Positions 33,009 to 33,073 of a stretch of 64,000 bases of DNA are shown here, in pieces. The stretch's first letter is position 1; each line of letters begins with the position of its first letter. The notes under the pieces were generated by a model. It was not told the origin of the DNA. It ran no database searches and saw only the letters and a program-made list of their open reading frames with translations. The DNA is from Escherichia coli (GTDB lineage: Bacteria; Pseudomonadota; Gammaproteobacteria; Enterobacterales; Enterobacteriaceae), in the NCBI RefSeq assembly GCF_044647545.1, contig NZ_CP172818.1; one strand, given 5' to 3'. The translations under genes and the position numbers were made by a program.

Positions 33009-33031
33009 CTCGCACTTTATTAACAAGCTAA

Positions 33032-33051
33032 AAAGGCGCCGAAGCGCCTTT
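33032..33051. terminator. bidirectional stem-loop between convergent bglA and gcvP
   Basis: AAAGGCGC-CGAA-GCGCCTTT palindrome in a 65-bp convergent spacer. Confidence 0.6.
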
Positions 33052-33073
33052 AGAAGATAGTCGAATCAGTGAA

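Follow-up and report, generated by a model that had tools for sequence, protein, structure and literature searches.

The bglA-gcvP junction of an Escherichia coli sequence: a common ygfF-negative allele carrying a private shortening of the spacer

In Escherichia coli K-12 MG1655 (NC_000913.3) the stop codons of bglA (b2901, plus strand) and gcvP (b2903, minus strand) are separated by an interval of 1,066 bp that is occupied by ygfF (b2902; 744 bp on the minus strand) and, upstream of this gene, by repeat-rich DNA. YgfF is an SDR-family enzyme with glucose 1-dehydrogenase activity in vitro (PMC10645960), an assignment that was accepted in a critical re-analysis (PMC12506659). A second arrangement is known from FDAARGOS_497, ECONIH1, O157:H7, S88 and SMS-3-5, in which ygfF is lacking and the neighbouring genes bglA and gcvP converge across a spacer of 163-165 bp, with a REP palindrome right after the TAA stop codon of bglA. 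The third comparison is with shared bidirectional terminators, in which one GC-rich stem-loop flanked by an A run and a T run lies between converging stop codons; a comparable layout is found in the Enterobacteriaceae MAG UBA2655, with the hairpin AAAAAGGGCCGG-GAAA-CCGGCCCTTTTTT. Here we compare these systems with the junction found in a window of 64 kb, by which we mean the whole stretch of DNA that was analysed. The window shares with K-12 MG1655 the flanking genes, their orientation and the probable terminator hairpin of gcvP, and it shares with the ygfF-negative allele the direct convergence of the two genes, the hairpin and the 63 gcvP-proximal base pairs, the last two being identical. 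It differs from the known form of the ygfF-negative allele in its spacer of only 65 bp, the missing REP, a TAG stop codon and a 3-bp filler. It has the stem-loop layout of the shared bidirectional terminators but differs from them in that the bglA strand has a T run of only 3 nt and a terminator scan was negative.

The features of the junction are collected in Table 1. The genes upstream of the bglA/gcvP pair in the window are yqfB, trhA and ygfZ, and the start of bglA can be placed at the GTG at 31575 (RefSeq-style), at 31569 (K-12-style) or at the TTG at 31551, which gives the longest ORF. An earlier note on this DNA had claimed that the two stop codons are 65 bp apart and that ygfF, which it placed between bglA and gcvP in K-12, is absent here. 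The coordinates agree with this spacing, the TAG of bglA being at 33006-33008 and the TAA of gcvP, seen as TTA on the plus strand, at 33074-33076, and the two genes are neighbours that converge, without an SDR gene in between. The K-12 order given in the note is that of MG1655, bglA not adjoining gcvP directly in that genome. The absence of ygfF holds beyond the junction, as no YgfF-like sequence was found in the 64-kb window, in which the best tblastn match had an E-value of 7 and blastn returned only chance 12-17-mers.

Table 1. Coordinates of the features at the bglA-gcvP junction, in window positions.
Feature	Coordinates	Strand	Details
bglA, 6-phospho-beta-glucosidase A	31575..33008	+	NCBIfam NF011589, 1148 bits
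gcvP, glycine dehydrogenase (aminomethyl-transferring), 957 aa	33074..35947	-	TIGR00461, 1838 bits
bglA-gcvP spacer, convergent genes	33009..33073		65 bp; from ORF ends
Private junction GCT	33008..33010		Takes the place of 101 bp of the common ygfF-less spacer (FDAARGOS_497, locus L003 38066-38166)
New 7-nt inverted repeat TTTAGCT / AGCTAAA	33004-33010 and 33026-33032		Arises from the junction bases
GC-rich hairpin AAAGGCGC-(CGAA)-GCGCCTTT	33032-33039 / 33044-33051		Perfect 8-bp inverted repeat, 4-nt loop

The distribution of the alleles was determined in 5,426 complete E. coli genomes. K-12 ygfF was found in 3,057 of these (56%), at 3,061 places, which is about one copy per genome and never on a plasmid, and 2,369 genomes (44%) are without any ygfF. 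A probe of 241 bp centred on the FDAARGOS_497 spacer, of which only end-to-end matches were counted, matched 2,350 genomes at 91-100% identity, O157:H7, S88 and SMS-3-5 among them, the ygfF-less spacer being about 163-165 bp long. A third allele of ~1.4 kb was present in 17 genomes and encodes a 312-amino acid Phenol_MetA_deg (PF13557) protein that RefSeq names 'transporter'. The three counts add up to 5,424 of the 5,426 genomes, so that the three alleles cover the whole collection. Since the number of genomes free of ygfF (2,369) is almost the same as the number of non-ygfF alleles at the locus (2,367), the data argue that the gene is missing rather than relocated, and the matching counts indicate that genomes without ygfF at the bglA-gcvP locus have no copy elsewhere. 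The earlier note had also counted the missing gene as a difference from K-12; the difference is real but is an ordinary polymorphism, shared with the 2,369 genomes above, and no peculiarity of the strain. The accessory gene ygfF has no known phenotype, and it shows decay in places, as in strain RM13745, where it is frameshifted. In E. coli 2017-02-2CC the gene for an IS621 (IS110-family) transposase lies between ygfF and gcvP (locus L012, 1777-2757), which is further evidence for this interval as an insertion hotspot.

The locus was also followed outside the collection with a degenerate pattern for the 3' end of gcvP, a survey that reached 7 species representatives, Salmonella and Citrobacter proper not among them. 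Escherichia sp. E1V33 has ygfF at the locus, with a protein 97% identical to that of K-12; in this strain a stretch of ~197 bp is duplicated in tandem between ygfF and gcvP, the two copies (868-1064 and 1041-1236 of the extracted interval) being 96% identical. The transporter allele was found in Escherichia sp. MOD1-EC7003 (L017, 7651-8589), E. whittamii and E. coli SCPM-O-B-8794 (loci L014, L017 and L019), and E. albertii, of which a short downstream sequence was available, resembles it there; the 312-amino acid protein of this allele carries a signal peptide, and the allele, rare in E. coli, is common in Escherichia of other species. In an E. coli-like MAG the spacer measures 165 bp, and in the more distant UBA2655, whose BglA is 74% identical, bglA and gcvP are directly convergent, ~75 bp apart, with a hairpin of their own. 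The ygfF-less spacer is more than the K-12 interval with ygfF cut out: its central ~98 bp have no relation to that interval, the match to K-12 is confined to the 46 bp adjoining gcvP, and comparison with K-12 revealed no remnant of ygfF in either the window or the 163-bp spacer. Judged from these comparisons, the bglA-gcvP locus is an old, multi-allelic presence/absence polymorphism, a hotspot between two core genes of Escherichia.

Outside its private differences the window is essentially identical to FDAARGOS_497 and ECONIH1. Its flanks belong to the ygfF-negative lineage: there are 0 mismatches to FDAARGOS_497 over positions 1-33007 (33,007 bp) and 33011-46480 (13,470 bp), which includes bglA up to 33007 (WP_022646090.1 in FDAARGOS_497) and the DNA of gcvP (100% identical), and an IS1 insertion is held in common with the ECONIH1 clade. 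The spacing is 65 bp because 101 bp of the 163-bp spacer of these relatives, from the third base of their TAA stop codon through ...CACACAAAG, are replaced by GCT, and the simplest description of this replacement is a 100-bp deletion with a 2-bp insertion. The stop codon of bglA changes from TAA to TAG, the protein is unchanged and both coding sequences are untouched. The lost block contains a single Z2-type REP palindrome, GCCTGATGCGC..GCTCATCAGGC, directly after bglA, and an AT-rich stretch; the REP/BIME palindrome (of the GCCTGATGCG...YATCAGGCC type) is at 38078-38102 of the FDAARGOS_497 locus L003 and was not found in the spacer of the window. Homology to the 163-165-bp spacer is only partial in the window, where the gcvP-proximal 63 bp, from 33011 onward, are present and identical, and the change spares the conserved hairpin beside gcvP. 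The junction bases create a 7-nt inverted repeat (Table 1) whose arms pair in the predicted RNA folds of both strands; an inverted-repeat search did not find this repeat in the spacer of the relatives.

The 65-bp spacing is private to the sequence of the window. None of the 5,426 complete genomes has a match across the junction, the best matches being split with ~98-100 extra bases between the two pieces. An exact 22-mer over the junction has 0 matches in metagenome contigs; for the usual allele the equivalent 23-mer has 35, and the 34 contigs that could be measured all have a spacer of 163-165 bp. An Rfam scan of the spacers of the window and of FDAARGOS_497 returned nothing at E<=1. Three accounts of the lost block were tried and rejected. 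Excision of a mobile, MITE-like element does not fit a block that is single-copy in the window, its relatives and E. coli (median of 1 place per genome) and that has no flanking direct repeat or target-site duplication. The 8-mer AGCTCGCA, which the window junction shares with the O157-type spacer, could suggest a mosaic origin but is most likely a coincidence, the flanks of the window being those of the other spacer type. Systematic loss of REPs in the window does not hold either: the region of the relatives gives three motif matches, of which only those at ~30348 and 33023 are REP palindromes, and one of these two is lost in the window, the REP at 30348 being kept with a 1-bp deletion.

The hairpin that remains in the spacer has a stem of 8 bp with 5 G-C pairs, folds on both strands and is kept in all alleles, including K-12 (46 bp, 97.8% identical). 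Its minus-strand sequence is AAAGGCGC-UUCG-GCGCCUUU followed by UU, so that a run of five U is made of the last three stem pairs and two bases beyond. The bglA strand has A5 before the hairpin and only U3 (TTT) after the loop, all of it within the stem. A simple consensus promoter and terminator scan of 32700-33400 gave 0 sites and did not call the hairpin on either strand. These data support the bidirectional hairpin of the earlier note in part, with a T5 on the gcvP strand but only T3 on the bglA strand and no call by the scan on either one. The hairpin is the probable intrinsic terminator of gcvTHP, and termination of bglA at the same hairpin would be plausible, though weak. A REP hairpin of its own follows bglA in the relatives, and in the window the shared hairpin is the only candidate stop signal left for bglA.

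The junction is one of several private differences of the window, which is separated from its nearest relatives by 3 substitutions, 13 gap openings and two larger deletions. The small indels are at 606, 30359, 46750, 46805, 47133-47143, 47472, 47840, 47998, 48326, 48627, 50348 and 59265, and they are concentrated in the flanks of intergenic hairpins and terminators, in IS1 and in the gene split by IS1; the private differences that hit intact genes are those in scpA and the DUF1471 gene and a deletion of 1,346 bp. In the DUF1471 gene a pair of +1/-1 indels 55 bp apart keeps the reading frame. The gene scpA (methylmalonyl-CoA mutase; 50159-52323) has C6 shortened to C5 at 50348, which leaves ORFs of 144 and 648 amino acids, and it is intact in the relatives. 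The 1,346-bp deletion, at 46480/46481, is private with respect to FDAARGOS_497, ECONIH1 and all other complete genomes, takes the greater part of each of two genes, one for a LysR-family regulator and one for an FMN-dependent NADH-azoreductase, and shows no obvious microhomology at its junction. The IS1 (from 47538) lies inside a gene for a ferric-reductase-like / FAD-binding oxidoreductase, and this insertion is common to 28 complete genomes, including ECONIH1, MS6198 and Ecol_881; FDAARGOS_497 is without 463 bp adjoining IS1, which the window keeps (47075-47537).

In light of these data, the junction is very probably the common ygfF-negative allele with a private change of 101 bp to GCT on top of it, the polymorphism being old. 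In favour of a recent deletion of ygfF in this strain from the K-12-like order bglA-ygfF-gcvP, the gene is dispensable, being frameshifted in RM13745 and absent from 44% of the genomes. The flanks of the window are, however, identical to those of a lineage in which the 163-bp ygfF-less spacer is already present, and this spacer holds ~98 bp unrelated to K-12 and no ygfF remnant. It is also common to 2,350 genomes of several deep lineages, at the identities given above, and the ygfF-less state must therefore be old. A recent deletion is already contradicted by these data and we give it next to no credence. That ygfF has moved elsewhere in the source genome rather than been lost is just as improbable. 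Nothing speaks positively for such a move, other than that the view is limited to 64 kb of the genome, and it would not agree with a gene that is present in at most one copy in almost all genomes (3,061 places in 3,057 genomes) and that no plasmid carries, with the match between the 2,369 ygfF-free genomes and the 2,367 genomes with a non-ygfF allele, or with the lack of any match in the window.

The nature of the private change within this common allele is a separate question, and there is nearly an even chance that the 65-bp junction reflects an error in assembly or consensus, or editing of the sequence, over a normal 163-bp ygfF-less spacer. The junction is unique among the 5,426 complete genomes and absent from metagenome contigs in which the normal junction occurs 35 times. 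Against the clade of 28 genomes with the same IS1 insertion the window also shows ~15 private differences, nearly all of them indels and many of them changes in the length of homopolymers or dinucleotides (C6 to C5 in scpA, GGGAAA to GGAA, GCGC to GC), and the DUF1471 variant protein found only in the window is not on record in a public gene index. Such an indel-heavy pattern is unlike normal divergence and may count against the private deletion as real biology. The excess of small indels could come from consensus error, from editing or from an odd mutational process. On the other hand, random consensus errors should fall to ~85-90% in coding DNA, whereas most of the private indels avoid intact genes, with four in intergenic DNA, three in IS1 and about four in the pseudogene split by IS1, a spread that random error would not give. 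Moreover, deletions of ~100 bp are not a typical consensus error, and this one leaves the putative terminator complete and a stop codon in its former place. A further reading, which we regard as unlikely, is a genuine change in which hairpin-associated instability of terminator and REP DNA would have given a natural strain whose bglA lacks its REP 3' element and shares the gcvTHP hairpin. Each of the three private differences within the first 46 kb (606, 30359 and 33008) lies at a REP or terminator hairpin, and the filler GCT lengthens an inverted repeat formed with AGCTAAA downstream, as would be expected of a template-switch deletion.

If the sequence of the window is taken as it stands, the preferred reading, a private change on the common ygfF-negative allele, would have consequences for the end of the bglA transcript. 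The 101 bp directly after the bglA stop codon would have been swapped for GCT, the REP after bglA would be gone and the hairpin assigned to gcvTHP would be the sole structured element left between the two genes. With no other structured element remaining, transcripts of bglA would have to end at the shared hairpin or else read through it, antisense into gcvP.

Taken together, these data place the ygfF-negative state of the window among what is already known, very common and ordinary, and the sole unusual element is a private, possibly artefactual shortening of ~100 bp. The absence of ygfF merely marks the window as not K-12-like and matters little, and the shortened spacer is chiefly a warning on the quality or provenance of the sequence. 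If the shortening is real, it would be a small natural test of one hairpin serving two convergent transcription units. For the species, the census shows clearly that the site between these two core genes is a hotspot with three alleles.
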